Source: Trypanosoma brucei
Taxonomy: Eukaryota
Direction: 5' to 3'
Length of the DNA stretch: 64,000 nt
NCBI GenBank assembly: GCA_000002445.1
Contig: CP000066.1
Location: forward strand, 544,001 to 608,000
Part shown: positions 4,257-62,956 of the stretch, one piece after another
Layout: the number at the start of each line of letters is the position of its first letter
Numbering within the stretch: position 1 is the first letter of the stretch
The notes under the pieces: generated by a model
Databases searched by the model: none
Told to the model about the DNA's origin: nothing
What the model saw: the letters and a program-made list of their open reading frames with translations, nothing else
Program-made: the position numbers and the translations under genes

Positions 4257-5039
4257 CTACAAACCGAGTTCAGTGGGATCCCTCCCTGCCTTCTCAGCCA
4301 ATTCTCTTTTGTATTCTTCAAACATTTTCTCCATTCGATGTGATTCATTCACCACTAACAACACGAACATAAACCAAATGTAAGCGAGGGCCACCACCTG
4401 AGCCATGTCGCCCCACTTGTTCAGCTTATCAACAGTGTCGGTATCTCCAACAACGGCAGTCGTGTGATCCGTTACGTTAAACCCGAGACTCTGCAACACA
4501 TTCACTGCGTCAGGTACATAAGCCGGTGGAAGGATAAACATCAGTAAGCGGTTGTCTTCCGACGGGTGTGTGACGTACCTTTCTCCCACGATGTTAAGCA
4601 CGCGCCTCCCAACCCAGCTGTGAAACCTTTCACGATACATATTCGGTGTCAGTAGCAAAAGCAGCATTGGGGTTCGAATTGGCTGTTCGCGTGAGATAAA
4701 TTCACGCCGTGTGAGGTTAAGATCTATACAGTCGGGAAACCCCATGGGGTGAAAGTACGCGTAACCGGGGAAGATGTTTCGGCGCAAAAGAATGCGCGCG
4801 AGGTAAACGTGCGTCGGATTAAATATGTCGTTACTAACGTACAATTTGTGCTCCTTTGCGTAGGGTTGATAGACCCACTCAGAGTAATATGAATCTAAGG
4901 CATACCGCGGTGCAGGAACAATAACTATCTGTTGCTTTCGAAACGGGTGCGTCACCTTCAATACGCTTGCTAGGTATTTTTTTTCCTCAGTGCGAATGAT
5001 ATCCTGCACGCGCCACTTCTTCTTCGCGAAGAGTGACAT
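4257..5039 (-). CDS. Hypothetical protein with a C-terminal hydrophobic segment (AQVVALAYIWFMFVLLVV).
   Basis: Track ORF 4257..5093 starts on TTG. The first ATG is at 5039 (MSLFAKKKWRV...). It runs in the same direction as the minus-strand gene block. Confidence 0.45.
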   Translation of the reverse strand: MSLFAKKKWRVQDIIRTEEKKYLASVLKVTHPFRKQQIVIVPAPRYALDSYYSEWVYQPYAKEHKLYVSNDIFNPTHVYLARILLRRNIFPGYAYFHPMGFPDCIDLNLTRREFISREQPIRTPMLLLLLTPNMYRERFHSWVGRRVLNIVGERYVTHPSEDNRLLMFILPPAYVPDAVNVLQSLGFNVTDHTTAVVGDTDTVDKLNKWGDMAQVVALAYIWFMFVLLVVNESHRMEKMFEEYKRELAEKAGRDPTELGL

Positions 5040-5644
5040 GCTCTCTGGAGAAGATTCTGTCAGTTGGGCGGCACCCGGTGACTTGAGGCTCAACTGCCAC
5101 TAATACTGAACAGTTATCGCCTTCTCTCGCCTCTGCCCGCACCGCACGGTTCTCACGCTTCCGGTCCTGCGCGGGATATAAAAACACAGTTGACAGGAAT
5201 AACAATGAACGTGATAAAAAGAGACATCGATAATGAGATGTTGCCGAATGGACCGCCACAAACAAAGGAGAGGGTAAAATAACATAACAACACTTTGATT
5301 CCATTTTTTTTTTTTTAACGGTTAGCGCAAAAGAAAACGATAGCACTCTTCAACGACGAAAAAGAAAACCTTGGGTTACGAGAGCTCCATTGAACGCGCC
5401 CGGACACATTGTAGTAAGATAAACCAACATTTTTAAAGGTAAAAAGAAGACAAAACGGCGCCCCAACGTTGAAGATTCGTTCGACTACTCCGGAGTAACA
5501 GCTAAAGAAACATTTCACACACAAATACACGCGCGAAAGCAGGCATTCCTATGCACTGGTAACTGATAGTGACAAAACTATGTTCGTACCGCCATAAAGC
5601 ACAGCAATGTTTCAAGGGAACGAAAAGACGAAGTAGAATGCGAC

Positions 5645-9951: not shown

Positions 9952-10409
9952 GAGTCTGCGCGTTGTTTGCGGTACTCAGTTCCTCCTCGTTTCCTATTTT
10001 TTTTTTAAAAAAAAGATACTCCTTCGTTTATCTGATTTCCCCGTTTTGCTTCGTTTTCGCGTTACTACTGATTTCTTTTTGGTTTTAAAATGCTCCGATT
10101 GTTAATTTGTGACAATTAATTTACCGTGTTTTTTTGTTTTAACTTTTTTGTTGGTCTTTCGTACCCGGACTCTCTCACGTTACCGCTCAGCAACACGGAA
10201 GCAGTAAGGAAAGGAAGATGGTGGGGGGAGAGAAATGAGAATAGTAGCGAAGTTTCCACAAAATGAAGAATACAGAGAAACGAATAGTAAAATAAAATAA
10301 ATAAAAGCGGTAAGGAAATGAAACTTGAATGAGGGAGGGGTTGAGAGGAGGAGGAGGTGAAAGAGAGAGAGAGAGATGGAAGAAAAGAAAGAGAAAGAAC
10401 AATAGTAAT

Positions 10410-10429
10410 TTATATATATATATATATAT
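10410..10429. repeat. (TA)n microsatellite inside a 2.4 kb low-complexity intergenic region
   Basis: tatatatatatatatatat flanked by GA-rich and T-rich runs. Confidence 0.9.
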
Positions 10430-11520
10430 CATTAGAAAACAAAAAGAGGGGGAAAGGAGGAGAAATGACACCAACGGATAAAAATAATGTTTTAGCGTCC
10501 GTTCGGCAATTGGTCACACCACTCGTTAGGTGGCGCCCCATCACTTGCTTTTGTTTCTTTTCCTTTTTGGTATTGTTTTACTTTGCATACTGCATTATTC
10601 TTTTTGTTGATTTTATATCATTCCTCTTTATATATCATGTTGTTGTTGCCTTTTTTTATCACCCTTACTGGGATCTTTTTCCCCTTTTTTTTGTTTCAAC
10701 TTTACCTATTCTCTGCTTCTCCTTTAAGCATAATCTTGGCGGACTCGTCCGGTTTGATTTACAGTTAAGAACAGAAAAGAGAGAACATATATATATACAA
10801 AAATGTTATAATCATGATTATCATTTGGCACTTCCACCGGAAGCAGAAATCTCAAACCATATCCTTCAAAAACTCCCCTCCCCTTTGTCTTATTTGGCAT
10901 CGGTTTCCCTTCTTTTTATTTCTTTTTGGGTACCCCCCCCCCCGCCTCCATTCGGTTTTTTTTTCTTTTTCATGTAGAAAAAAAAAAAGTTGTTGCTGCC
11001 GCCGCTTAAGGGTGCCTCCGACATTTCACACAATAAACAATCAAACGAACAAAAAAAAAAGAGTTTGTTGGCCGCCCTCGCATCCGCCGAAACAAACACA
11101 AAAAAAGGGCATCACGAACGTACGCCACGCTAAACATAAAATGAAAAATTAAACAAAAAAACACAAAGATACTTCCGCTGTAAAACTTCCGGAACTTTCA
11201 ACAACTCAGTGGCCTCAGCTCTCACCGTTATTTTCCCGTTTAATACTTTCCATTTCTCCCCGCTCCCACAACACATGTCATCTTCATCTCCATCTTATCC
11301 TCATCCCATCACTCAGTATAGTTATGCATACATGTACGCATTTGCTCTCCATGCTGCGGGAAGGAAAAGAAAAGAAAAGGAAATGAAAGGAAAGGAAAGG
11401 AAATAAAATAAAGCCCTAAAATCATGCGAAGGGTCGAAAGGGACGAAAGGGGGAAAGGGGGGTGGTTAAGCTCAAAGACACATCGCTGGTACACTGCGGA
11501 AGCACAACGCACAAATACAC

Positions 11521-14217: not shown

Positions 14218-15216
14218 TCATCCAATAAACGTTTTCTCGCCTGTGTCACGGTCGACGATTACTTGCGTTCGCGTATCAGGCACGACCCGTACCTCGTAAC
14301 GGCCCACGTAACACCGCAGATCCGCAAATACGAGCAACAAATTCACATTCACATTTCGACAACCCACACCACTAACAAAGAAACTCATCTCGATTCCTCT
14401 CACACCCTCTTCCGTCTGTCCCTCCTCTTTCGCAGTCGATAGCGGCCCGCGCAGCACCGTTGCATCAATTAGTGAGCAGTTCACATCCACGGAACCACCA
14501 AGGAGGGGCCCACATACACCTCGAACATCACCTTGAAGTTTGTCGAGATTAGAGATGTATTTATCTTTGAGAGAAGGCACCATCATCTCAACAGCGGTCT
14601 TTGGGGGCCGTTCGAAGAGCCTTTCCACAAATTTCTCAGCGAACGGTATGAAGTCATCAGTTTTCAAGAACTGTAATACATCGGACTTCACTTCCGTGTG
14701 TGGTTCAAAACGGAACGCTGTGACAAAAAAGCGCTTGCTAACCTCAGTCTTCGCGCTACTTTGATTCCGAGGGGCGGCTCCAGTGGTATGTCTCCACTTC
14801 CATGACATGCGACACTTCACCTGCTGTACCTTCTCGAAATCCACCAGTGCGATGATGTGCGCCTCGTCACCGTCATCCTTAACAAGAACGGCATCGCGCA
14901 TGATGTTCGTCACCTTTCCCAGCCGATCGCAAACCCATCGAACCATTGCTCGCACAACACCGCGTTCCACCCTAACCGTCAGCAACTCCGGATGAAACAA
15001 ATTCATGAGCTCCTTATCATAGCCAGCGGTGGCGCCATCAGTTAATACTTCTAAAAAGTGCGCCAACGGCGCCACTACCTCCGGTGGTACTTCACCAATT
15101 CGCTTTATCCGGTAGTAAAGATAGTAAAGTAATACTACAAACCATGGAACAACACTAACGATTATTACGCCCAACGTCGATGACGAGTCGAATAGAAGAC
15201 TATAAATAGCGCTCAT
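14218..15216 (-). CDS. Hypothetical protein with an N-terminal transmembrane anchor.
   Basis: 332 aa, ATG start. N-terminal hydrophobic helix LGVIIVSVVPWFVVLLYYLYY. I recognised no catalytic motif. Confidence 0.45.
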   Translation of the reverse strand: MSAIYSLLFDSSSTLGVIIVSVVPWFVVLLYYLYYRIKRIGEVPPEVVAPLAHFLEVLTDGATAGYDKELMNLFHPELLTVRVERGVVRAMVRWVCDRLGKVTNIMRDAVLVKDDGDEAHIIALVDFEKVQQVKCRMSWKWRHTTGAAPRNQSSAKTEVSKRFFVTAFRFEPHTEVKSDVLQFLKTDDFIPFAEKFVERLFERPPKTAVEMMVPSLKDKYISNLDKLQGDVRGVCGPLLGGSVDVNCSLIDATVLRGPLSTAKEEGQTEEGVRGIEMSFFVSGVGCRNVNVNLLLVFADLRCYVGRYEVRVVPDTRTQVIVDRDTGEKTFIG

Positions 15217-30446: not shown

Positions 30447-31208
30447 TCAACCCTCAGATGCGGTGAGTGTTGCCAGTGACAAAGCCCTCCCTACCAGTTC
30501 CTCAACATGTGAATCAGTTATTTTCTTCTCATCGTTGTCCTTGAGCAAGAATTCTACTTCCACCTCGTATCCGGTAGTGTGTTTGTCGCGAACTCGGGTG
30601 AGATCATAGCGAAACAAACCATCAGTCACGCTCAAGCGGTCCTTGTGGCGCGTGTACCCCCTCGTGGGAGCGAAATTAGGGCTGGGTAGCTCTCCTGTAA
30701 TTTCAGTGCATGCAGAAAAGCGAATGTCGTATGCCCCAGATGGAACGGGAACATCCAAGACAAAAAGTCGCTCCTTTCTTATGCACGCGATGCATTCACT
30801 GGGCTTCCCAGAGGTGTAGGTGTAGCGCCATTGACCAAAGGAGACATCACGGGTAGTCGAACGGGTAACACTCCCTTCTTTACCCTTGTCAAGACAAAAT
30901 TCCTCAATTCGCTTGTAATCTTCCTCGGCAACACCAGGCATCACCTCCGTCCTGGTTTTGCGTGCCCTTCGGCCCTTCCACTCGCGCTCTGAGGAAGTTG
31001 ATCCAGACTTGTCACTCACTTCTGCGCGCCGGCACAGACGAGCTTCCAACTCCATATGCGTGTGGTCAAGGGACTGCAAACGCTGAAATAATTCCTCCAC
31101 TATGGTTCGTTTCTCATCTGTCTTCGCTAGTACCTCACAGTCATCACGCCTCTCGTCATTTCGCTCGTTACGCTCTCTCTTTCGCCTTCGTTCCGTCGCT
31201 TCCATCAT
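30447..31208 (-). CDS. CET1: mRNA-capping RNA 5'-triphosphatase of the triphosphate-tunnel-metalloenzyme family (Cet1-like).
   Basis: About 252-253 aa after trimming the TTG-initiated track ORF to the first ATG. Motif A-like ELEARL near the N-terminus and motif C-like YEVEVEFLL near the C-terminus carry the paired-glutamate beta-strands of the tunnel. The size matches the reported 252-aa trypanosome Cet1. Confidence 0.55.
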   Translation of the reverse strand: MMEATERRRKRERNERNDERRDDCEVLAKTDEKRTIVEELFQRLQSLDHTHMELEARLCRRAEVSDKSGSTSSEREWKGRRARKTRTEVMPGVAEEDYKRIEEFCLDKGKEGSVTRSTTRDVSFGQWRYTYTSGKPSECIACIRKERLFVLDVPVPSGAYDIRFSACTEITGELPSPNFAPTRGYTRHKDRLSVTDGLFRYDLTRVRDKHTTGYEVEVEFLLKDNDEKKITDSHVEELVGRALSLATLTASEG

Positions 31209-31547
31209 TCTATGGACTTTTCGCAAACTATTTGAGAAGTTTGAGCGTTTGTAGGTATTAGGAGTTCAGTGAAGACAATCTTGGTATATTATTTTGTTGT
31301 TGCTATCTCGACCCTATCGTTACAACCCCGGTTCTCACCCTTCACCCCGGTACGCACAAACACGTACACCCAGCAGCAATAAAAAATCACATTGAAACGC
31401 ACAGACACCGTTCTCATGAGTCGCGCAGAAGAGCCCATTGCAACAAACATCCGTCTGCAATTAGACCACAGACCCACCCAGCTATCAGAGCCAACTTCAG
31501 GATCCCACCACCTCCTCCACCGGTATCATGGTGCTTCGGATTCCACC

Positions 31548-32594
31548 TCATGAAGTGCGAGAGCGCTTGCGACGCAGAAGGGGGCACTCTTCCCGCGTGT
31601 GCCCACCGTCATTACAATAACTGCAGAGCACATATGAAGTTGCATGGGCACGTCCCCGGCTCCCAACCGCGTGCGTTGCACCCTCTGCGTTTTGCCTCTC
31701 TAGAATCTCCCTCACCTGTATCTCGCGTTCGCGCTCTCTCTCTTCCGTTGTCTTACAAGCCTCAGCAACCAGCTTCTCAACCTCCACCATCAAGTTCTTC
31801 GCTTCGCCGTGACTGGGATCCAGCTCAAGGCAACGCCGCAGTGCTGTGCAAGACTCTTGTGGACGCTTCAGCTGATGCTGTGCGCATCCCACTCGAAAGA
31901 ATGCCCTCGCGTACGTCGGATGTACCTCTATAGCTCTCATTCCATCCTTCAGCGATTCCGACCAGCGGCCAGCACGAGCATAAGCAGCACTTCGATTACA
32001 TAGTAAAACAGCCATATCTGCCGCTACGCTACCACCGCCATTCCCCCTGTTACTCTCCCCATTTGAGGCACATTTTGTATGAAGTTCAATCGCTTTGGAG
32101 AAGTGCCGCACAGCACTCAAATACTCGCCCTTCGTCATGGCTTCCTTTCCCTGCTCGATACCCTTGCGATAGTAGTAAGAGTCAAGGGTGTCCTTCGATG
32201 CGACACCTCGGCCACTGCGCATCAGCTCTAACACTAGCTGATGTTGTTCCTTATACAAAATAGTGTTAGGGTCCAACTCGTAGGCACGAGCATAGTGTCG
32301 CGAGGCCTCCTCGTAGTGCTTGAGCCCGTGGTAGGCTGCTGCCATTCGCCCATGAACTTTGCTGTTGCGGTCGTCCATCTGAAGGGCCTCCTTTGCAGCA
32401 CTAAGTGCTTCAGCGAATTGTTCTCGCGCAGCATAACAGGCGCTCATATTAGAAAATGCCCGTATCTTTTGTGCCACTGTGATGTGCTCGTCGGAGCTAA
32501 TCGTCTTGTACAAACCAATGGCGGCGATATGATTTCCTTCACGCACAAGGGATGCCGCCTTGACAAAGTTCTCCTCTAACGCTGCATTGGCCAT
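31548..32594 (-). CDS. TPR-repeat protein with a C-terminal CCHC zinc knuckle.
   Basis: Several 34-residue TPR units (A..Y..A...AL.LDP patterns). C-terminal CSYCNDGGHTREEC has CX2CX4HX4C spacing. The track start is TTG and the first ATG is at 32594. Confidence 0.7.
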   Translation of the reverse strand: MANAALEENFVKAASLVREGNHIAAIGLYKTISSDEHITVAQKIRAFSNMSACYAAREQFAEALSAAKEALQMDDRNSKVHGRMAAAYHGLKHYEEASRHYARAYELDPNTILYKEQHQLVLELMRSGRGVASKDTLDSYYYRKGIEQGKEAMTKGEYLSAVRHFSKAIELHTKCASNGESNRGNGGGSVAADMAVLLCNRSAAYARAGRWSESLKDGMRAIEVHPTYARAFFRVGCAQHQLKRPQESCTALRRCLELDPSHGEAKNLMVEVEKLVAEACKTTEEREREREIQVREILERQNAEGATHAVGSRGRAHATSYVLCSYCNDGGHTREECPLLRRKRSRTS

Positions 32595-33318
32595 TGTACC
32601 CAATAAACTTCCTCACATATACAAAAAAAAAAGTCTCCTCAGAGACAATTAATGTGACAAAAAGGGGGAGAGATGTCCTCAAAGGTCGTTGAGAAGAGGG
32701 AAGAAAAAACAGAATGCGCCACCAAAATGGCAATAGGATGTTTCAGCAGCACACGCCCATATGGGAAAATTATAATAGTATTTGAATGTGGTGCGCGGCT
32801 AAGAGTTGCAGGCAGATCGAGAAAACATCTCATCAATACAGACTGCAAGGAACCCCAACTACCTTTCAGCAACCACCTCCACAACCGGAACAGCTCAACA
32901 CCAAGTAACTCTTTAAGTGAACACTCCACCAGGCGCAAATTTTTTAATCAAACAAATCCCCTGAACCATGGAGAACCTCCACCCTCACATAGCAACTGGA
33001 GGGCAGCACGAGTCAGAGTTGTCACCACAAAAGGAAGTGAGGCATTTACACCTCGAATGAAATATCAGTCCTCACGCACGCCCAAAACGCAAAATGTCAA
33101 TATAACAGCTAGAGTAGCGATAATAATTCTATGAAAGCACAGCTACAAGAGACTAATAGCAGTCAACGCAGATATCAACAATGTGAAGATACACGTACGA
33201 AGACAAACAATGGCGCACGCAAATCGAATTAAAAAGACCTCCGAATGGGAGGCTGCTATTAAGCGACGATCGACAGAAACAGCGAACGCACCGGTTTAAT
33301 TTTACACTTCGTGTTCGC

Positions 33319-35103
33319 TCAAGCAGTACGGTTGTACACACGCAAAAGATCCCGTTGCTTCAAGGGTAACATATCTATCATTTCGCGAGACAGCTGAACT
33401 TCCTTCTCCGTTTCATCCTCCATAGGGTTTGCAGATGCAAAATCAACGGCCTTTTGAAACATTTGAATGGCAACCGAGATATTCTCGAACTCCTCTCTGG
33501 GATTTTTAAAAACAAATTTTAGCTGCAGCTGGGCAAGTCGCATAGCCGCCCTGAAAAATGGCATCCTGGACTCCGATTCGAGTACCTCAGGTACCACCCC
33601 TGATTTTGGATCTTTCCATGTATCACAGAAACGCCTGTAGAAGGACTGATTGACCCTAACGAGGGCGTTCAGGCTCTTGTCACTCAACGGTTTCTCACCC
33701 TCCACAGGGTCGCTTCTCTGACGGATGCGCAGCTCAACTACTTCCTCATGAATGACGCCGAGGTCAAATAACAGTTGCCTCACCAGTGTCGGGTACGCCT
33801 TGAAACTAAGGTCATCTGGGAATTTCTCTAGTAGTGTCACGCGACGCTGATGCATAGCAATAATACGATCACGGCCCGTCTCGAAATGAATAAGCACCTC
33901 ATACAAACGCGCCTTGTCCTTCATGATCTCGATGTGCTCAGTGCAGCACCCATCGTACACATAAAATTTAAGAGCTTCATTAAACCAGTTGGTCGCAGTT
34001 TTGAAACATTCACGGGCGTCGTCAAAAGTTTCGATAATAGGAGGGAATTCTGGTGGGGGGATGTCAAGGGGAAAATCTTCCCACCAGCCCTCCAATTCGT
34101 CCGGTAGGGGGGCACGTGAAGCACAACCACGCTTGACATCAGCATAGTGCTGCAGGCGATGCAAGTAGAACCTTCCGTGTGCCCACGCCACAACACCGAG
34201 GGTCTCCTCAGTTGGATTTTCCTTCGGCATTACGAAACGACCAGCACTGAGGCAGTGTAGCGCTTTACCGTAGTCGTAGTAACTACTGTAAAATGCACTC
34301 AGATGCAGGGCGTTCGTAGCCCAGTCCTTCTTGGAGAACTCCATCTTGTTGAGTAGCTGACTGTACAGCGTTCTGTGGCAGTAACGCGAAGCCATCGCTG
34401 TCATCTGCGATGCTGAATAAACCTGCGCCAAAAAGAAAAGTGTAGATGTAAATGCCGTATCCATTTCGTACCTTGCAGTGTATATTGCCAGTGCATCTGT
34501 GGATATGCTTTCGCGGTCAAGCCCGCCGCTTTCTTTAACAGGAACTTGTTGCATCACGCAACTTCCAGGTAACGATTCAAACCACTTGTTCCAATTGTTA
34601 TATCCCTTTTCGGCAACATGAAGAACCTGCTTGGCATCGTTGAGACGCAATGTCGCATCCCGATTAGAGAAGTAGAGCCCTAGTGCATTATGAACCCGCA
34701 GAAACTCAGTTGCGAATGCAAAACGGTGGGTCGCGTCTATGTAAGGTGCCTCGTTCTGCAGTATTAACTCTATTGGGTGGGGTGTGATGTTCTCAACATC
34801 GGCCAACAGTTCCTCCTTAGCACCGGAAAGAGTAACAGAGTATGCCTTGCGCAGCTCTGTCATGCCCTCCTCTTCTTCCGATGTTTCCAACATGTTTAAA
34901 CCAATGAATATACCACACCGGCAAACTTGACTAAGCGCAGTAAAACTAGGCGACTCTCTGTATGCATTCACAACAGAGTCCCTTAATGATTGCATTTGGC
35001 TCCTGGCCGTGAACTTGGGCTCTAGAACGTTACGCCTCGGTCCCTCCTCTTCACTTAGTTTTACGATGGCATCGTATGACAACGTGAACGCAGTGTGGTC
35101 CAT
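33319..35103 (-). CDS. KIFBP: KIF-binding protein (KBP/KIFBP/KIAA1279) homologue.
   Basis: 594 aa. LFFLAQVYSASQMTAMASRYCHRTLYSQLL...WATNALHLSAFYSSYYDYGKALHCLSAGRFV aligns with human KBP LYYLAQVYQHLEMFEKAAHYCHSTLKRQLE...WAINAATLSQFYINKLCFMEARHCLSAANVI. The C-terminal HIEIMKDKARLYEVLIHFETGRDRIIAMHQRRVTLLE aligns with HIEVVQDHSALFKVLAFFETDMERRCKMHKRRIAMLE. Confidence 0.8.
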   Translation of the reverse strand: MDHTAFTLSYDAIVKLSEEEGPRRNVLEPKFTARSQMQSLRDSVVNAYRESPSFTALSQVCRCGIFIGLNMLETSEEEEGMTELRKAYSVTLSGAKEELLADVENITPHPIELILQNEAPYIDATHRFAFATEFLRVHNALGLYFSNRDATLRLNDAKQVLHVAEKGYNNWNKWFESLPGSCVMQQVPVKESGGLDRESISTDALAIYTARYEMDTAFTSTLFFLAQVYSASQMTAMASRYCHRTLYSQLLNKMEFSKKDWATNALHLSAFYSSYYDYGKALHCLSAGRFVMPKENPTEETLGVVAWAHGRFYLHRLQHYADVKRGCASRAPLPDELEGWWEDFPLDIPPPEFPPIIETFDDARECFKTATNWFNEALKFYVYDGCCTEHIEIMKDKARLYEVLIHFETGRDRIIAMHQRRVTLLEKFPDDLSFKAYPTLVRQLLFDLGVIHEEVVELRIRQRSDPVEGEKPLSDKSLNALVRVNQSFYRRFCDTWKDPKSGVVPEVLESESRMPFFRAAMRLAQLQLKFVFKNPREEFENISVAIQMFQKAVDFASANPMEDETEKEVQLSREMIDMLPLKQRDLLRVYNRTA

Positions 35104-35398
35104 CTAAGAAAGTAGAGGTGTAAAAATTAAATTTCTTCCCCTGTCACAGATGCCAAAAGGTTCAGAAGCAATGTCAAGGATGTCAGCTGTAGGCAATAGG
35201 GGCTCAGTGGGTTAGCCCCAGGAGTGTATAAAACGCCAACCTTCAGAAAAGCAGCTAAACGAAGTAAATCAAAACAGAAATGGAGGGGCACATACTCGAG
35301 TTCAACAACCTACTATTCCGCCAACAGCGGAAAGACGTGAATCTTTAAGTTACCACCAAACAAATAAAAGCTAACCTTACTATGGGAAGAAATGCACT

Positions 35399-36061
35399 TC
35401 ACATAAAGTTGTCATCACCATCGGGAACGTTGGCAGCACCACCCTCATCCCCTATGGTGTCCAATCCCAGTGCATCTCCTGCTGAAGAGCCACCCTTTGC
35501 GGATGCCCCTTCCTTCCCCGGTTGCTCCCGCTTGTCACCCTTTGTTTGCTTCATTTTTCCTTCACAAACCTTACTTGCGTTTGATACCTTGTCCTTAATG
35601 GTCCTGAGGGTGTCAAGGGCGTTGCCTGACTTAAACTCACGGGCTATATCACGGAAAACGACAGAAAGGATTGAGTTGAAGTGTGGAGACTCAGAAAAGC
35701 TAAGAAGGCGGTCAGCCAATACGACACCGAGCGCCTCCGCCTCCGCGGCAGTGTTGACGGGCATGTCAGCGATGAGCTTTACGGCGTTCTCACTGTCTTT
35801 TACCACATTCAGGGCTTCCCCGGCACTGCTTGCCGTGCTTTTCATATCTTCAAGAGCCCTTGCAACGTCAGCGGGTAATAGCTCCTCCTCTTCAGTTCGT
35901 GCAGAAGCTCTGGCACGTCTTCGCTGCCTTTCCTTCTCCAGTAGGGCTTGTTGTTCTCGCAGTTTTCGCTTAAGGGCTTCCTCCTCGGCAGCTTCTCCTT
36001 GCTGGGCTTCAACCTCCCAGTCATCAGCAGCGTCGTCATACTCATGGTAGTCCTCCTCCAT
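35399..36061 (-). CDS. EIF3J: Translation initiation factor eIF3 subunit j (Hcr1) homologue.
   Basis: 220 aa and acidic. N-terminal DDWEVEA corresponds to the human eIF3j DSWDADAF motif. ILSVVFRDIAREFKSGNALDTLRTIKDKV aligns with FLEVLVRDVCISLEIDDLKKITNSLTVL. The C-terminal DGDDNFM matches the conserved eIF3j DYEDFM terminus. Confidence 0.6.
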   Translation of the reverse strand: MEEDYHEYDDAADDWEVEAQQGEAAEEEALKRKLREQQALLEKERQRRRARASARTEEEELLPADVARALEDMKSTASSAGEALNVVKDSENAVKLIADMPVNTAAEAEALGVVLADRLLSFSESPHFNSILSVVFRDIAREFKSGNALDTLRTIKDKVSNASKVCEGKMKQTKGDKREQPGKEGASAKGGSSAGDALGLDTIGDEGGAANVPDGDDNFM

Positions 36062-36930: not shown

Positions 36931-37836
36931 TTAGATTGCCCTCTTTTTCATTAACTCAGCCATCAGCGCCCCGAGCTGAGCGGGTGAATGGGCCACAACG
37001 GCACCTGCAGCTTCAAGTGCTTCCATCTTTCCTTTCGCAGTCCCCTGCCCACCAGAGACAACAGCCCCAGCGTGACCCATTCTGCGTCCTGGGGGGGCAG
37101 TGGCACCACCAATGAAAGTAACCAAAGGTTTCTTGATGGGATGATTCTTTATGAATTCTGCAGCCTCTTCCTCAGCAGTACCACCGATCTCACCAATGAG
37201 AATGATACCTTCAGTTCCAGGATCTTCCAGATACAACTTAACGCAGTCGATCATGTTGGTACCGTTGAACGGATCGCCACCAATTCCCACGCACAACGAC
37301 TGTCCAAGGTTGACGGCTGTTGTTTGGGCAACAGCCTCGTAAGTAAGGGTGCCACTTCGGGAAACCACACCAATGCAGCCCTTCTTGTGGATGTGGCCAG
37401 GCATAATACCAATCTTGCACTCCTCCGGGCGAATAATACCCGGACAGTTAGGACCTATCAGCCGGGTCTTGTTCTGGGAGAGAAGCATAGATTTTACGCG
37501 GAGCATATCCCACTGCGGAATCCCTTCAGTGATAACAACAACCAGGGGAACTTCGGCAACCAAAGCCTCCTCCACTGCTGCAGCGCAGTGAGGAGCAGGG
37601 ACATAAATAACAGTAGCGTCGGCCCCAGTGTTTTTCACTGCCTCAGCAACCGTACCAAAGACAGGCAGGTTAAGGTAGGTCGAACCCGCTTTCTTAGGGT
37701 TCACTCCGCCCACCATTTTGGTGCCATAAGCAATCGCCTGCTCAGTGTGGTATGTGCCGTGCTTCCCCGTTATACCTTGGCATATGACCTTAGTGTTTTG
37801 GTTAATCCACAAGCGGCGAACTGTCCTTGAGAGCAT
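36931..37836 (-). CDS. Succinyl-CoA ligase (ADP/GDP-forming) subunit alpha.
   Basis: 301 aa, ATG start. Canonical CoA-binding and phosphohistidine regions ([49 protein letters not shown]). Near-full-length match to SCS-alpha. Confidence 0.95.
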
Positions 37837-39616: not shown

Positions 39617-40513
39617 TCAAAGACATGCGGACGACAAATGCGCTATGTTCTCCTTACCCAAAACAGCTAGACACTCCGACAACAGCATTTCCATATCTTT
39701 GAAATATTCACCTTGCTCGCTGACTAGATTGGACACGGGGTTGTACTGGAGATATTCATCAACATCAGTACAGTCACTGGTAGGAAGGGTAGTTGCCCCT
39801 GACACGCATTTCTGAACTAAGGAAGGATCATCGGTATTAGGCACACACTCACACCGGTTCTCTAAAAGTGGCGATGTATGCTTCACGTAATATCCACGCA
39901 TCTCGCTAAGTGCCAGCATGACCACTTCATTGCGTGAAACATGTTCCTCATCCCATAGGAAGTTACGAACCTCCGTCTCCTGTTGAATTAACCGAGTAAT
40001 CGAATTACCGACCCGAATATCGTTGAGTCCTTGCTCCAGGATTCTTCGTGACGCTGCGAGATCCGCCAACTGTGTTGCAACCTTGTGAACGTTGGTACGG
40101 CAGCGGTCCAAGCGAACTGCCAAACATTCTAGCAATCTTTCCATATACTCTGATTTCTCTGCGAAATTTTTCGTCACATCTTTTATGCCCCGTCTAACCG
40201 ATACTAGCGTCGTGTCAGGTTCAGTCTGCGTGGATGAAGAAAATGTGAAACATTCCGTCTGCGTATCACGGTTTGTAGGTTGTTGAGCGCACTGGATCCC
40301 AACATCTTTCAGATATATGGAATGTTGCACACCTTTACTGAAGATTTTTGACTCTGTTTGGATAGATTTGGAAAACGAGCTTGGCGGGGCCACCACGGGT
40401 TTCCCCTCTATGCTGGGTTGTTGCAACTTATCCTTCCTTGGGTAGCCTTCTATGGACGCTATTACCTCATCGGCGATAGCCAATATACTTTCGGTCTCCC
40501 TCTTCACGGTCAT
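39617..40513 (-). CDS. Hypothetical protein.
   Basis: 298 aa, ATG start. It sits in the minus-strand gene block and is separated from the next gene by only 165 nt, which contain a polypyrimidine tract and AG. Confidence 0.4.
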   Translation of the reverse strand: MTVKRETESILAIADEVIASIEGYPRKDKLQQPSIEGKPVVAPPSSFSKSIQTESKIFSKGVQHSIYLKDVGIQCAQQPTNRDTQTECFTFSSSTQTEPDTTLVSVRRGIKDVTKNFAEKSEYMERLLECLAVRLDRCRTNVHKVATQLADLAASRRILEQGLNDIRVGNSITRLIQQETEVRNFLWDEEHVSRNEVVMLALSEMRGYYVKHTSPLLENRCECVPNTDDPSLVQKCVSGATTLPTSDCTDVDEYLQYNPVSNLVSEQGEYFKDMEMLLSECLAVLGKENIAHLSSACL

Positions 40514-41521: not shown

Positions 41522-43743
41522 ATCTTAACAGGTGGAGTGCGCAGCTATATACACGCACACATATGTGCATATCCATGCCCGAAAAAGGCAAATAATCCTA
41601 GAGTCGCGGGCGCGCACGAAGAAACAGGTCTGGAAGCTTCCAAAACAACGTGCCAGTAGACAGCATACAATAGAGCAACAAAACGATAGCAGACAACTCT
41701 ACACGTTGTCTTCAAGGAAGGTTTCCACACTTCTGCAAAGCAGACAAGAGGAAATCGAAAGTGACAGGACCGAAAAGGGTTAATAAACCCAAAACACCAG
41801 TACAGCCAGCCCACCCACTGTCCGCCAAAACGGGACCACTGTCTAATGAAATTTAGACATCTGCAGACCCTCAGAAAACTACGGCCCCAAATTCCTCAGT
41901 AGTAGATGCGACCTTTTATCCCCGAAATAAATTTAAAAAGTGGAGGATAGCGCATACAATACTTACCATTTCCCCCAGCCAAACTTCCCGATGCGAAAGT
42001 CTGAGGACCCGCAGGGAACGGCACTGCACTCTGTCCTCTTTCTCAAATTGAAGGACGGAACAAGATGTTAGTAGACAGAATGATAGTTGTCCGGTTCTGT
42101 GGCTTTTCGGGAAACCGATAAATGACATTATTGAAGGAATGGCAGGATGATTTGAAAAATCGACCGTAAAAAAAAAAGAAAGAAACTACTGAGACATCTG
42201 GCGTTCGAAAGCTGGCCATCTCGGAACGAACGCAAGGCAGTGCGACTATACAGATGTCGGGGTGCTGCCACTAAACCTAAGAAACGCTACAGCATCTGCG
42301 AAAAGAAAGGGAATGAAAAGGCCAGAACTGTTAGCCCTCATGCCAAAGGTTGCGGTTGCCCCTAGAAACATCTTAGCTTAGGGGGGCCAAGCTTCGGTAC
42401 TGCACTCAACCGCCATCAGCCACAGCTGCATATGTTTTGTTGGTTATTTAAGCCTAGTGGTGCGTGTCGCAAAGCCCTTTTAGGCTTCCAGCTTCCATTG
42501 CCTGGGATATGCCCCTTATTTCTGAGAAGCATGGCGCGAGTCTGGTAACATTCCCAAATAATCAACAACGGCAAGACGACGTGCACAACACCCGTCTGCT
42601 GAGCGAGAGTGTGATTATAATAAAGAGGGCGGGCCAAATAACTCTGCTTGTGGAATCGCCCCCATGGAAGCCTCCTAGGGTGCCAGCGTCCCTCCAAGGT
42701 CGACCCGTTCTACGTTTGTTGTTTTTTTTTTCCTGGTTGGCAGCCGTGATTTTAGTTGCGTTTTCACATACACTGAACGGCGGCAGTGCAAGTGCAATGG
42801 CCAAGCGTCCGGATACACACAACTCTGTTTAATTACTTACAATCACCGTTCATGCAATACCGTTTTGTTTTTTTTTTGTGGGGAGAGGGTAACGGCCAAC
42901 AGTGACTCGAAGACGCAGCGCATGTTTGCACTTGCCTATCACAGTTTGCGCGTGTTTTGGTGCTGCCCGCGACACTCCATTTGCCTTGTCCGACAGTTCC
43001 TTGAACAAACTAGGCGTTTGGGGGCGAGATATTCTCAGGACGGTCCCTTCTAGCATGCAAGATTGCCCGTCCAAGCTTGACGCCGCGCTGGTGCAGCTTT
43101 CCCCTCCCACGCGCGCCGCCATTTCCGGGGTTTCAATCCTGTAGGTGGAGGTGACCTTCCGCTACACTCGTCCAAGAGTCCGGTGCAAATCTGAGCGGGT
43201 TTCTGTGGGGCCGTTGGGCCCGCCGCCGCTATGTTTGGTTCACTGCCGGGAGGAAAGTGCCCCCCTCCCCTGTTGCGGGTGTTCGGTGGCCTTCGGGTCA
43301 GTAGTGCGAACTTCCCACCCGGGCTTTGGCGTGTTCCCCTGTTGTTGTCTTGACCGGGGAGGTTACGCTCCTCTGTGTGCGTGCGGTTGCCATTCCAATC
43401 TTTGTTTGAAGGCGAAGATCTGCCGCGGCCACTTCGCGATCCGCTGCTGCAATGGAAGTGAGAGTGGAAGATATTCTTAGCAATGATGTGGTCTTTCGCT
43501 GCCCCTCTTAGTACCACCTTCCTATTATGTTTTTTTTACCGCTATCAAAGACACGTTCTTCAATTGTCACGTCACATACGAAACTGTGTTTTTCGTGCGC
43601 GTGCACACGCACGCATGTAAAAGCTGAGTTTGCTGACATTGTAATGCATACACTTTTTTATTACACTATTTCCAGACGATGCATCCCAAAATAGAAACGT
43701 TTGATCGCGTGGCTGGTTAGTTGTTGATTGGGGCGATTTTGTG

Positions 43744-49474: not shown

Positions 49475-50377
49475 ATGAGTTACGAGATACAACCCATATT
49501 GAAGGGGACGAAACGCGACCCAGCAACGCGGAAGTACAACAGGGCAGCGGGAAAGGGTCCTTTTGGTGCCTTCCCCCCAGGCTACGCTCCCAAGCAGGAG
49601 AAGCCCAGCATCCCTATCGAGGGACCGGTAGCGGTGCAAGGTGTGCGCTTCGCGTATAAGGGAACCGTTCAGCGCACAGGTGGCACCACGACATCCTTGT
49701 ATAAGGGTCGCCAACAACATGAGAGTGCAGTCGCCTTTACTACCAACGGTGCCGGTGACAGCAAGCCACCCAAAGCGGGTGCATTCAAGCGTCGATTGAT
49801 ACCACCCACTGAGTTCCGTCGGTACTATGATCGTGGAGACTTGCCGTTGTCTGTTGCTCATGGAAACCGCCCCACTATTGACTGGAAGGTAGATGTGGAA
49901 AGGCTTGATTATCACCATTATCTTCCTATATTCTTTGATGGGATTCGTGAGACGGAGGAGCCGTATATGTTTCTTGCGAGACAAGGGTGTTTGGATCTGC
50001 TAAAGCGTGGTGGTCCCAAGATACTCCCAACAATCCCTCAGCTGATTATTCCCATAAAAACTGCTTTAAACACGCGGCACCCGGAGATCATTTGCGCAAC
50101 GCTTCGGATTCTTCAACAACTGATTGTCAGTGGTGATCTGATTGGTGAGGCCTTGGTTCCTTACTACCGTCAGATACTTCCTATGTTTAACCTCTTTAAG
50201 AGCCGCCACAAGAATCGAGCCCGTGGAGATGCCATTGATTTTGGACAAAGGAAGCGCGACGATGTCGGCGATTTGGTTATTGAGACACTTCAGCTGTTGG
50301 AGGTTCATGGTGGCGACGATGCGTATATCAACATCAAATATATGGTGCCGACGTATGAGAGCTGTATTTTCAGTTGA
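49475..50377 (+). CDS. PACRG: Parkin co-regulated gene protein (PACRG) homologue, a conserved axonemal protein.
   Basis: Collinear with human PACRG over about 200 aa. Matching blocks include [91 protein letters not shown] and [12 protein letters not shown]. Confidence 0.9.
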
Positions 50378-58104: not shown

Positions 58105-59532
58105 ATGATTCACTTCGTCTTACTATGCTATCTCCTTTTCCCGCACGTACACCCGCAAGCCGCACCACTTCTCGAAGCGCTGGATCATCCGCTGTACTTC
58201 AGATCCAGCATGATGGCACAAAAAACAGATATTATAAATGGCAGTGTAATGAAGAAGCTGTTGGATTGGTACGTGGTCCGCGAGGCAAGTGAGTTGGGCT
58301 TTCGTGTTGCTACACTATTACAGACTGAAAACATGACACACTCAGAGCATGCAGAACCTTCCCTTGTTGCTCTTGGCCATGTAGTCACACGATGTAAACC
58401 CGTTTCAATGCCATCGTCTGCACCTGACGCTGCTTCTGTTGCATTACAGACATCACCTAGAACTATAAGGTTCTTTTATATCTGCAGCGGGTGGTCCTCC
58501 GCAACTCTTCGTGCCGTGGTTGCCCACTGGCGGGAAGGGACACTGGAGACAGTGGTGGACGAACCAGTCCTTTCGCTTGGTGCAGCGCGGGGGTGGCATT
58601 TGCCTATCAGCGTCCCAGATACGCCTCAACATTTGCTCTACGTTCTTGCGGCCGATGGGAAAACAACGGCAGTGCTGATCGAGGCCGATGAGTCTCCCAC
58701 AAGTGCACAACCCACTCGCATAACGACCCTACGCTTACCTCAGAAGTCGGCCGCGGGCGACACAAGATTAGTGTCATCTTGTTACCTGCCGAGCGTTGGG
58801 CTCAGTGGTCTCGTGCACCATTCAGAGACAGATGGACACTCGCACTTTGAACTGCACCGTGTCTTTTCCTCTGCACAGTCAGCAGAATTGCTACTGGAAA
58901 CATCAACGAACATCTTTACTGAACTCAGCGTGGAAGAGCGGCTTCACTGCAGCCTCTCGTCCCGCGTCACTTTCACTGACTGTAGCCTCACCTTCTCCAA
59001 TGAGGCGGTGTCTCGTGTGGACGTAACGGTTACCGCCCTTGTTGAGTCTCCAGTCGGAAGCGGTGGACACACAGTCGATGAGTGGATTTTGTGTGGCAAA
59101 ATAACACTTTCAGGAAACGCTGTGGTAAAAGAAAGTGGACTAAGAATTCAAGTGGCTCCTTTGCGCCGAGAGCGATTTACACCTGCGCGAACGACTCTTG
59201 AGCACGTTGCGCGCTTGGGATCGAACGGAAGTATCACGGGCCACATGAGGCGCTGTATTTTTTACCACGCTGGCGGTGCCGCCAGAGCTGAAGGTGGCGG
59301 TGAGGAGGTCGTGAATTGTAGCAGTGCCACAACCCACTTCCGCAGCGGTCGCCGCGGTGTTTCCAAGAGCTGCGTGGCGTTGCGGGTGTGGTGGAGACAA
59401 GAAGAGACCATCAATGGATATTTGTGCAATAAATTTGGTCTCTCCACCACCGAATTAAGCTCCGTTTTCTTTGTACTATTCACATCATTATGCGGTCTCC
59501 AACTTACCGCTTATTTTTTTTGTTCAACCTAG
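58105..59532 (+). CDS. Predicted type I membrane / surface protein.
   Basis: 475 aa, ATG start. Signal-peptide-like N-terminus MIHFVLLCYLLFPHVHPQAA and a single C-terminal transmembrane helix LSSVFFVLFTSLCGLQLTAYFF. Confidence 0.5.
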   Translation: MIHFVLLCYLLFPHVHPQAAPLLEALDHPLYFRSSMMAQKTDIINGSVMKKLLDWYVVREASELGFRVATLLQTENMTHSEHAEPSLVALGHVVTRCKPVSMPSSAPDAASVALQTSPRTIRFFYICSGWSSATLRAVVAHWREGTLETVVDEPVLSLGAARGWHLPISVPDTPQHLLYVLAADGKTTAVLIEADESPTSAQPTRITTLRLPQKSAAGDTRLVSSCYLPSVGLSGLVHHSETDGHSHFELHRVFSSAQSAELLLETSTNIFTELSVEERLHCSLSSRVTFTDCSLTFSNEAVSRVDVTVTALVESPVGSGGHTVDEWILCGKITLSGNAVVKESGLRIQVAPLRRERFTPARTTLEHVARLGSNGSITGHMRRCIFYHAGGAARAEGGGEEVVNCSSATTHFRSGRRGVSKSCVALRVWWRQEETINGYLCNKFGLSTTELSSVFFVLFTSLCGLQLTAYFFCST

Positions 59533-61085: not shown

Positions 61086-61627
61086 GGCAATTAAATCATA
61101 ACTAATAAGAGACACCGGCTGAATGTCAAAACAAAAAAATTCCAATCGGAACATGTACATTTGGGGCTTTTCCGCCTGAAGAATATGTGAGCGTTCGACA
61201 CCCACGAGTTTGTTTTGTCTTTTTGTGTGTTTTGATTTGCTTGACAGGACGAATGGCACGCGTTTGTCGTCAGCTGGGCATGCAATGGTGTATATTAGTG
61301 TCATATCTTGGGTATTTTATCCTAGTTTAGCCTCTTTTATTTGTGTTGGTGTCCGACTAAACTGCATGCCACAAAATTGTCTTGAATTTTTTTTTCACCT
61401 TTTTTTTTCTTTTTTGTTCTGTGTTTTCGTAATACTCAAGACCATTGGGAGCTTTTTGTACCTCTAAAAAAAAAAAAGCTCACCCGACGCCATTTGATTC
61501 ATATCCCACTCCTAGTGGTGGCATCGGCACAGAACTTTGTTTGTTTTGTTATTTTCTTTGTATTTAGTGGCTGGCACATATCGTTTGTGTTTGGAAGCCC
61601 ACGTAGCTGAATGTGATACGGCCCTTC

Positions 61628-62956
61628 ATGAAAATATTACGCGATGTTTACAGGCAAACCTTCCCAAAGAAATTGCGATTCGACAAGTCTTCCCGAATTC
61701 TTTACGCCCAGATATATGTGATAGCGAGGCGCCACAAGCATCGGAAATACATACCGAAGGAGGATATCGAAGACGTCCTTAACAATTACACAACGCTACC
61801 GGGATCCCCATGGTTACAGCTTCCGATAATCCGACATGTTTTGCTGATACGACAGATAAATGGGATCCGTGGCTTCTTTGGGAAACGCTCTTGGCTTCTC
61901 AACCGGGCTGTGGAAGAGGAGTTTAACAAAATTGTGCGGTGGATGAATGCGCAGGAGCAGTTAGTATTGAGGACGGGAGCGGGTAGATGCGCTGCAAATC
62001 TTGTGCTCCGAGAAAAGTTTGTAAAGGAGGTACTGGACGTTTTTCACGTAGCCACGGCTTACCAACGTATGGTGCGTGTTGGGGCCCTTTTGATTGTTAT
62101 ACTTTTACTTCTTCTTATCGTTATGGTAAATGTGGATCGTTTCGTGTACGTATACCTGGTACACTGGTCGGGCATGTGTCGCACGGAGGTGATGGAGTGG
62201 TTCCGTGAGATAACTGAGCAGCACGCCGTAGCGGAGGTGCCTCCGGCGTATCGAAGTTTGTTGCCACCTCCCTGTGTGATGCGTGTCGCTGAGGATGGCC
62301 GGGTAAAGTATGAATTAAAAATAGCTGAACTTGTTTCTAAGGATGAGAATATCATTGTTCTTGCGGTCCCCTGCCCACAGGTTGGGACAAAGTCGTTTTT
62401 TGCTGCACTGGGAAAGACGGTGGGGCTATGCGATGCTGTTCTCATGGAGGGGGTATCATTTGAGTATATTGATCGTATTGCCCCTGCATCCCTGTTTCCC
62501 CTGCGTGATGACACATTCCCCGCCCTTGGTGTGCATCATCGCTTTCTCGACATTCTTCGTGACTCGCGTGAGCCACCGTTTTTGTACCCTGCGGGCACAG
62601 AATTGAGCTGGTCGGCTTACTTGCAGCACCTTCTAATTCCATTTGAAGTCAAGTGTATTTATTGGCCCACATTCTCCTCTGCGTCAAAAGGGGAGGCGCG
62701 GGTGGGTTGGGGTCGATTGAGGGAGCTCATTGAAAAAGTAACTGTGGAACAAGAACGAGCACAATTAGGAGAGGATAAGAAAGAGCTGAAGCCGTATGTT
62801 ATTTGCTTACCGTGGACAGTGAACCAGATAGTTAATCTGGAGGCTAGCTTAGTTAAATTGGGGTTTCGCGTGAGAAGGGTGTTTCCATTGGAGTGGATCG
62901 ACCGCGACCACATGGGCGAGCATTTCTGTAATTATTACAGCCTTGTTGGGGAATGA
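61628..62956 (+). CDS. Hypothetical protein with one internal hydrophobic helix.
   Basis: The track ORF 61613..62956 starts at GTG and the first ATG is at 61628. Segment VGALLIVILLLLLIVMV is hydrophobic. I recognised no domain with confidence. Confidence 0.45.
   Translation: MKILRDVYRQTFPKKLRFDKSSRILYAQIYVIARRHKHRKYIPKEDIEDVLNNYTTLPGSPWLQLPIIRHVLLIRQINGIRGFFGKRSWLLNRAVEEEFNKIVRWMNAQEQLVLRTGAGRCAANLVLREKFVKEVLDVFHVATAYQRMVRVGALLIVILLLLLIVMVNVDRFVYVYLVHWSGMCRTEVMEWFREITEQHAVAEVPPAYRSLLPPPCVMRVAEDGRVKYELKIAELVSKDENIIVLAVPCPQVGTKSFFAALGKTVGLCDAVLMEGVSFEYIDRIAPASLFPLRDDTFPALGVHHRFLDILRDSREPPFLYPAGTELSWSAYLQHLLIPFEVKCIYWPTFSSASKGEARVGWGRLRELIEKVTVEQERAQLGEDKKELKPYVICLPWTVNQIVNLEASLVKLGFRVRRVFPLEWIDRDHMGEHFCNYYSLVGE

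Follow-up and report, generated by a model that had tools for sequence, protein, structure and literature searches.

Does the open reading frame (ORF) at 33319..35103 of this 64,000-nucleotide stretch of the Trypanosoma brucei genome (contig CP000066.1, positions 544,001 to 608,000; the whole stretch is called the window below) encode a homologue of the KIF-binding protein KBP (KIFBP), as a first-pass annotation had proposed, and what would such a protein do in a trypanosome? T. brucei has many kinesins, a highly divergent set of motors on which the assembly of the flagellum, the remodelling of the cytoskeleton and cytokinesis depend. To our knowledge, the trans-acting regulators of these motors are poorly known, and a conserved motor-domain inhibitor constitutes a concrete candidate for such a regulator.

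Identification of a KBP homologue in T. brucei

An ATG-to-stop ORF of 594 amino acids lies on the minus strand exactly at 33319..35103, and its translation is identical in sequence to the database protein of T. brucei brucei TREU927 (XP_843815.1, AAZ10256.1, UniProt Q582T4). This protein is a clear homologue of KBP, as shown by its family membership and its full-length collinearity. Its sole Pfam family match at E<=1 was KBP_C (PF12309; E=1.9e-58), where the score of 199 bits far exceeds the curated threshold of 29.5 and the best-scoring stretch is residues 357-582. Among 177,635 distinct PDB sequences searched with phmmer, human KIFBP (6ZPG and others) was the only match at E<=1 (E=1.3e-43). 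The alignment comprises two blocks, residues 211-294 facing human residues 202-282 (stretch E=2.1e-10) and residues 359-584 facing human 388-612 (stretch E=2.7e-31). The two blocks of similarity with human KBP described in the first-pass annotation are thus real, and much stronger than chance would produce, but the letters of the motifs quoted there are those of the human protein; the trypanosome protein reads LFFLAQVY..CHRTL..CLSAGRFV and HIEIMKDK..HFETG..HQRRVTLLE. The proposed homology itself is borne out by Pfam, PDB, profile and structural model, and it had been understated, since it extends over the full length. With a profile built from 33 homologues, both blocks merge into one stretch covering human residues 132-615 (E=1.2e-86), and a MAFFT alignment with the bat, starfish and mite KIFBPs (alignment A2) shows collinearity all the way from Loop-1 to HP9b, the final helix (helices are numbered by helix pair, HP).

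A search in the reverse direction, made within the window, led back to the same place. Bat KIFBP, compared with the window by reverse tblastn, matched only at 34704..33358 (E=6e-42), and the starfish, jakobid and Chlamydomonas KBPs gave a significant match in the window to this ORF alone. One orthologue cluster was found per kinetoplastid species, with full-length identities to the T. brucei protein of 66-73% within Trypanosoma and 44-47% with Leishmaniinae. T. brucei KBP is a single-copy orthologue, a protein of about 68 kDa predicted to form an all-alpha, right-handed solenoid of the tetratricopeptide repeat (TPR)-like type.

That the ORF encodes something else, either a generic TPR protein resembling KBP by chance or an L-ribulokinase, has next to no probability. 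Neither a TPR nor a sugar-kinase family of Pfam matches at E<=1, the TPR repeat models compared including TPR_1, TPR_2, TPR_8 and others, and the precomputed Pfam assignment of the orthologues is PF12309 only. No PDB sequence besides KIFBP matches, whether by phmmer or with the family profile, and the canonical TPR protein encoded by the adjoining gene (31548-32603) shows no similarity to KBP. The generic TPR identity, which the first-pass annotation had named as the outcome that would speak against KBP, is therefore refuted. The L-ribulokinase (FGGY sugar kinase) identity is refuted likewise, as there is no carbohydrate kinase domain and KBP_C stands alone in the ORF and its orthologues. Three orthologues, those of T. 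theileri (P0005), T. grayi (P0007) and T. rangeli (P0010), are named 'putative L-ribulokinase' in GenBank; they are 66-68% identical to the T. brucei protein and carry PF12309 only. This name looks like a propagated misannotation.

Predicted architecture

In human KBP, a series of nine antiparallel pairs of helices is interrupted by a linker helix with a linker loop (PMC7746232). An AlphaFold2 model of the T. brucei protein, built from the family alignment (mean predicted local distance difference test score, pLDDT, 92.7; predicted TM-score, pTM, 0.86), is of high confidence and entirely helical, with eighteen helices in nine pairs; residues 299-324, a long helix, and the loop of residues 325-359 split the series. 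When this model was compared with the PDB using Foldseek, the best match was KBP 6ZPG, with TM-scores of 0.60 (query-normalised) and 0.74 (target-normalised), and the other apo-KIFBP model, 7RYQ, scored 0.57 and 0.63; all other TPR proteins remained at or below 0.30 (query-normalised). On this model, T. brucei KBP is predicted to share the architecture of human KBP. The TPR solenoids of KLC1/2, LGN/Pins and APC/C subunits have no detectable sequence relationship to the trypanosome protein, and they align with its model at much lower coverage (query-normalised Foldseek score, TMq, <=0.30). What KLC binds is not the motor domain of kinesin but its tail, as well as cargo peptides (PMC7746232).

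The N-terminal subdomain is an alpha-solenoid of residues 3-291 (34231..35097, on the minus strand as are all features of this gene) that comprises HP1-HP5 and is collinear with mammalian KIFBP; its helices in the model are 3-17, 28-50, 54-73, 77-95, 131-146, 151-176, 205-231, 235-252, 258-274 and 278-291. Loop-1 and the start of HP1b, residues 20-34 (EGPRRNVLEPKFTAR; 35002..35046), correspond to mammalian NPEKEPYKSKYGAR in A2 and in an alignment of 141 sequences. Between HP2b and HP3a an insertion of about 35 amino acids, residues 96-130 (34714..34818; A2 columns 134-166), is present in kinetoplastid, diplonemid and euglenid sequences and not in the three metazoan KIFBPs aligned; with a mean conservation of 0.13, versus 0.36 overall, no other segment of the protein is conserved so little. 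HP4a, HP4b and HP5a, residues 205-274 (34282..34491), form the predicted groove for the kinesin alpha4 helix, as located by mapping of residues F224/Q227, Q249 and H267/A270. The linker helix 299-324 and linker loop 325-359 (together 34027..34209) are seen in the model, whose pLDDT falls to 66 around residues 331-340. Mammals have a much longer linker loop, and the alignment shows gaps here when compared with the bat and starfish sequences. The C-terminal subdomain, residues 360-593 (33325..34026), comprises HP6-HP9 and is delimited by the Pfam stretch (357-582), the PDB stretch (359-584) and the model helices (360-593). Within it, residue mapping places the equivalent of loop L12 at D384-G385-C386 (human DGY; 33946..33954) and that of loop L14 at D431-L-S-F-K-A-Y437 (human DLNPQY-Y; 33793..33813).

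Human KIFBP (KIAA1279; structures 6ZPG, 6ZPH, 7RSI, 7RSQ, 7RYP and 7RYQ) and the trypanosome protein have in common the KBP_C family, collinearity over the full length and, by prediction, the arrangement of nine helix pairs, linker helix and linker loop. No more than about 24-27% of their residues are identical. T. brucei KBP has no counterpart of the acidic insert that follows HP1b in mammals, and its L10 and linker loops are much shorter.

Conservation of the kinesin-contact elements and proposed function

In the complex with human KBP, the kinesin alpha4 helix is drawn about 15 Å out of the motor into the groove between HP4a, HP4b and HP5a (Solon et al., PMC8604404). With alanine in place of Y213/Q216 in HP4a or of Q238 in HP4b, human KBP binds and inhibits KIF15 and KIF1A much less; a T255/Q258 mutant in HP5a has a weaker effect, and L12 (DGY) and L14 (DLNPQY) contribute too (Atherton et al., PMC7746232). 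Mutation of L14 was found to lower kinesin binding and inhibition in both studies (PMC8604404, PMC7746232). Loop-1 is required for binding of KIF15 and KIF18A, and Solon et al. stress Loop-1 together with L14 (PMC8604404); the two studies differ on the weight of human Loop-1 (PMC8604404, PMC7746232).

Human Y213 and Q216 of HP4a correspond to F224 and Q227 of the trypanosome protein, the glutamine being identical and the tyrosine conservatively replaced by phenylalanine, and human Q238 of HP4b corresponds to the identical Q249. In HP5a, a W-A-x-N-A motif is shared, whereas human T255 and Q258 are not conserved (H267 and A270). L12 retains the aspartate and glycine and has lost the aromatic residue, which is a cysteine in T. 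brucei. In L14 the aspartate, the leucine and a small polar residue are kept, D-L-(N/S), followed by SFKA in place of human NPQY when the serine is counted. At the end of Loop-1, where bat NPEKEPYKSKYGAR faces T. brucei GPRRNVLEPKFTAR, the motif K-(Y/F)-x-A-R is kept; A33 is invariant in A2, and P22 and R34 are nearly so. Among the charged residues of this loop, human K36 corresponds to K30 and human K30 to R24, and human K26 and K34 are both replaced by glutamate.

To place these residues in the family as a whole, conservation was scored over 141 full-length members retrieved by an exhaustive HMMER search. No other position of the protein is as conserved as Q227 (141/141, 100%) and Q249 (99%), and position 224 is phenylalanine or tyrosine in most of the sequences shown. 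The HP4a-HP5a region holds 12 of the 45 most conserved positions, versus 5.3 expected (p=0.003). Among segments, conservation is highest in L14 (mean 0.615), and HP5a, HP6b, HP4b and HP7a also belong to the most conserved ones; the least conserved parts are the loops and the 96-130 insertion. Such conservation of the groove and of L14 would be hard to account for had selection not acted on one and the same binding surface ever since the common ancestor. That the groove glutamines are the most conserved residues across animals, euglenozoans and green algae also provides independent evolutionary support for the alpha4-capture mechanism.

By analogy with the human protein, it is likely that T. 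brucei KBP binds the tubulin-binding face of some kinesin motor domains, sequesters alpha4 and blocks attachment to microtubules. In such a mechanism the trypanosome protein would, like human KBP, recognise this face in a subset of motors only. Its HP4a/HP4b/HP5a groove would capture the alpha4 helix, loops L12 and L14 would clamp the beta5-L8 region of the kinesin, and a motor held in this way could not attach to microtubules. The partner kinesins must differ from those of human KBP, since the trypanosome kinesins are, as is generally known, highly divergent.

Not all contact elements are equally conserved, and this could mean that a true KBP homologue has diverged in function in the kinetoplastids, where it would serve a non-kinesin partner or act as a general scaffold, kinesin inhibition being a metazoan speciality. 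In favour of such a divergence, the HP5a TLSQ motif (T. brucei residues 267-270) is found in metazoan sequences only, the jakobid, Chlamydomonas and all euglenozoans having glycine or alanine at the position of human Q258. L12 is also degenerate in kinetoplastids: the euglenid, the jakobid, Chlamydomonas and the bat show the full D-G-aromatic motif, Trypanosoma species keep D-G in the form DGC or DGS, and Leishmaniinae have lost it (ES or ET). L14 and Loop-1 are partly conserved, and the functional data on KBP all come from vertebrates. However, the equivalents of Q216 and Q238 are the most conserved positions across Metazoa, Euglenozoa, the jakobid and Chlamydomonas, with L14 as the top segment. 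The missing TLSQ motif is moreover no argument against the proposed function in trypanosomes, because TLSQ is a metazoan feature and not a family-wide one. We therefore hold a diverged function to be unlikely. The comparison also allows the contact motifs known from human KBP to be sorted into a core, namely HP4a, HP4b and L14, and metazoan additions, namely the HP5a TLSQ motif, the acidic insert and the long loops.

It could also be argued that the protein does bind kinesin motors but, instead of inhibiting them, serves mainly as a positive factor, for instance as a holdase or stabiliser of soluble motors or in their delivery. The original 2005 report on KBP is said to have found that its loss lowered KIF1B-alpha-dependent transport. 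Against this stand two independent cryo-EM studies, in which KBP occludes the microtubule-binding face of the motor and displaces alpha4, so that motility is incompatible with bound KBP (PMC8604404, PMC7746232). The conserved part of the protein is, furthermore, the very groove that displaces alpha4. A mainly positive role consequently appears quite improbable to us, and inhibition of the motor domain remains the preferred function.

Phyletic distribution and a possible ancestral role

How widely the KBP family is spread depended on the search used. A word-indexed profile search with alignment A2 still gave taxa within Euglenozoa plus Schistosoma; the exhaustive search, together with the names of the sequences found, widened this range. 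At E<=1e-3 it returned the representatives of 724 clusters formed at 50% identity, 436 of them at E<=1e-10. Named members include the diplonemid Lacrimia, the euglenid Ploeotia, a mite, a bat, a starfish, the jakobid Stygiella and Chlamydomonas schloesseri, whose protein is labelled 'KIF-binding protein' in UniRef. The KBPs of Leishmania, Lacrimia, Ploeotia, Stygiella and Chlamydomonas have the same groove glutamines as T. brucei. The family is thus ancient and present at least in Opisthokonta, Discoba and Archaeplastida, and a KBP in kinetoplastids is to be expected from this wide and ancient distribution. In the transcriptome of Ploeotia vitrea, two different KBP-like proteins were observed (P0181 and P0063; 587 and 811 amino acids), which suggests paralogy in euglenids, in contrast with the single copy of kinetoplastids.

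The named non-metazoan carriers (kinetoplastids, diplonemid, euglenid, jakobid and Chlamydomonas) are all flagellates, and for this reason an ancestral flagellar role comes into view. KBP may have been a kinesin motor inhibitor already in the era of the last eukaryotic common ancestor (LECA), with the original and still central task of keeping flagellum-building or division kinesins, for instance the kinesin-2 of intraflagellar transport (IFT), inactive in the cytoplasm. We put this forward tentatively, as a possibility on the doubtful side. Were it right, the core function of KBP and its selectivity rules could for the first time be studied in a unicellular organism open to genetics, T. brucei.

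Gene model and annotation status

The gene is inferred to be Tb927.3.2210 from its position, as two genes stand between CET1 (Tb927.3.2190; ORF 30447-31226, with an mRNA triphosphatase domain) and eIF3j (Tb927.3.2220; ORF 35399-36061, with an eIF3-subunit domain and 220 amino acids both in the ORF and in the database gene). The 594-residue model is backed by residues 1-36, comprising HP1a and the Loop-1 motif, which are conserved in all kinetoplastids. The T. b. gambiense DAL972 protein XP_011772173.1 has 558 amino acids, starts at the equivalent of Met37 (33319..34995 of the window) and differs from TREU927 by two substitutions. This model is probably an N-terminally truncated annotation, lacking the HP1a helix and the conserved Loop-1 motif. 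Upstream of the ATG, the intergenic region 35104..35398 (minus strand, 295 nt) shows, on direct reading, pyrimidine-rich tracts followed by AG. It likely contains the trans-splice acceptor and the 5' untranslated region, and the mRNA of eIF3j, the gene upstream, probably ends there as well, a reading that follows from general trypanosome mRNA processing.

It had been suspected at first pass that the protein is annotated only as a conserved hypothetical. This is true of GenBank, where the TREU927 and gambiense records read 'hypothetical protein, conserved', but UniRef already names the Q582T4 protein 'KIF-binding protein', and the records of T. equiperdum, T. melophagium, Lotmaria and L. lindenbergi carry KIF-1-binding-protein names. 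The identification as KBP is already public through the automatic pipelines of UniProt and Pfam and is not new. In the literature searched, no paper was found that links KIFBP/KBP to trypanosomes or studies Tb927.3.2210, and there was no experimental study of the Leishmania, Lacrimia, Ploeotia, Stygiella or Chlamydomonas KBPs; the gene appears in one paper, merely as an example of chromatin immunoprecipitation sequencing (ChIP-seq). It is not listed in the searched supplements of the TrypTag paper or of a structure-based kinetoplastid re-annotation paper, and a 2026 review on KIFBP does not mention non-metazoan homologues. Overall, it would be reasonable to follow up Tb927.3.2210 by experiment, although as a candidate the gene is unremarkable.

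Genomic neighbourhood

The KBP gene belongs to a polycistronic unit on the minus strand, in which it is surrounded by unrelated housekeeping genes, and the 64-kb window holds no kinesin gene and no tRNA gene. Genomic context was accordingly rejected as a clue to function, the neighbours being unrelated and no kinesin being present. Directly downstream of KBP, 31548..32603 (minus strand) encodes the canonical TPR protein mentioned above, with matches to 13 Pfam TPR models and a C-terminal Cys/His zinc-knuckle-like tail. That two TPR-like genes adjoin appears to be a coincidence, because this product has no detectable similarity to KBP. On the opposite strand, the ORFs 35382..36050 and 36988..37830 (222 and 280 amino acids) run antisense to the genes for eIF3j and succinyl-CoA ligase alpha, with nearly the same extent as these, and are most likely spurious shadow ORFs.

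Between about 41400 and 43740 the strands switch divergently: to the left, as far as 41393, every long ORF is on the minus strand, and to the right, beginning at 43741, every one is on the plus strand. The sign of the GC skew reverses near 42 kb. Polycistronic transcription likely starts in this region. About 14 kb from KBP, in the unit transcribed the other way, 49475..50377 (plus strand) encodes a homologue of PACRG (parkin co-regulated gene; Pfam ParcG, E=1e-77). PACRG is a flagellar axoneme protein, and no functional link with KBP is implied. Five ORFs of 278-475 amino acids are without a Pfam match at E<=1e-3 and thus stay hypothetical proteins of uncharacterised nature, namely 4257..5093, 14218..15216 and 39617..40513 on the minus strand and 58105..59532 and 61613..62956 on the plus strand. 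Finally, the segment 10001..12000 has the lowest GC content of the window (39.4%, versus about 45-53% elsewhere) and a single ORF of at least 200 amino acids, 10357..10977, which lies on the plus strand within an otherwise minus-strand unit.
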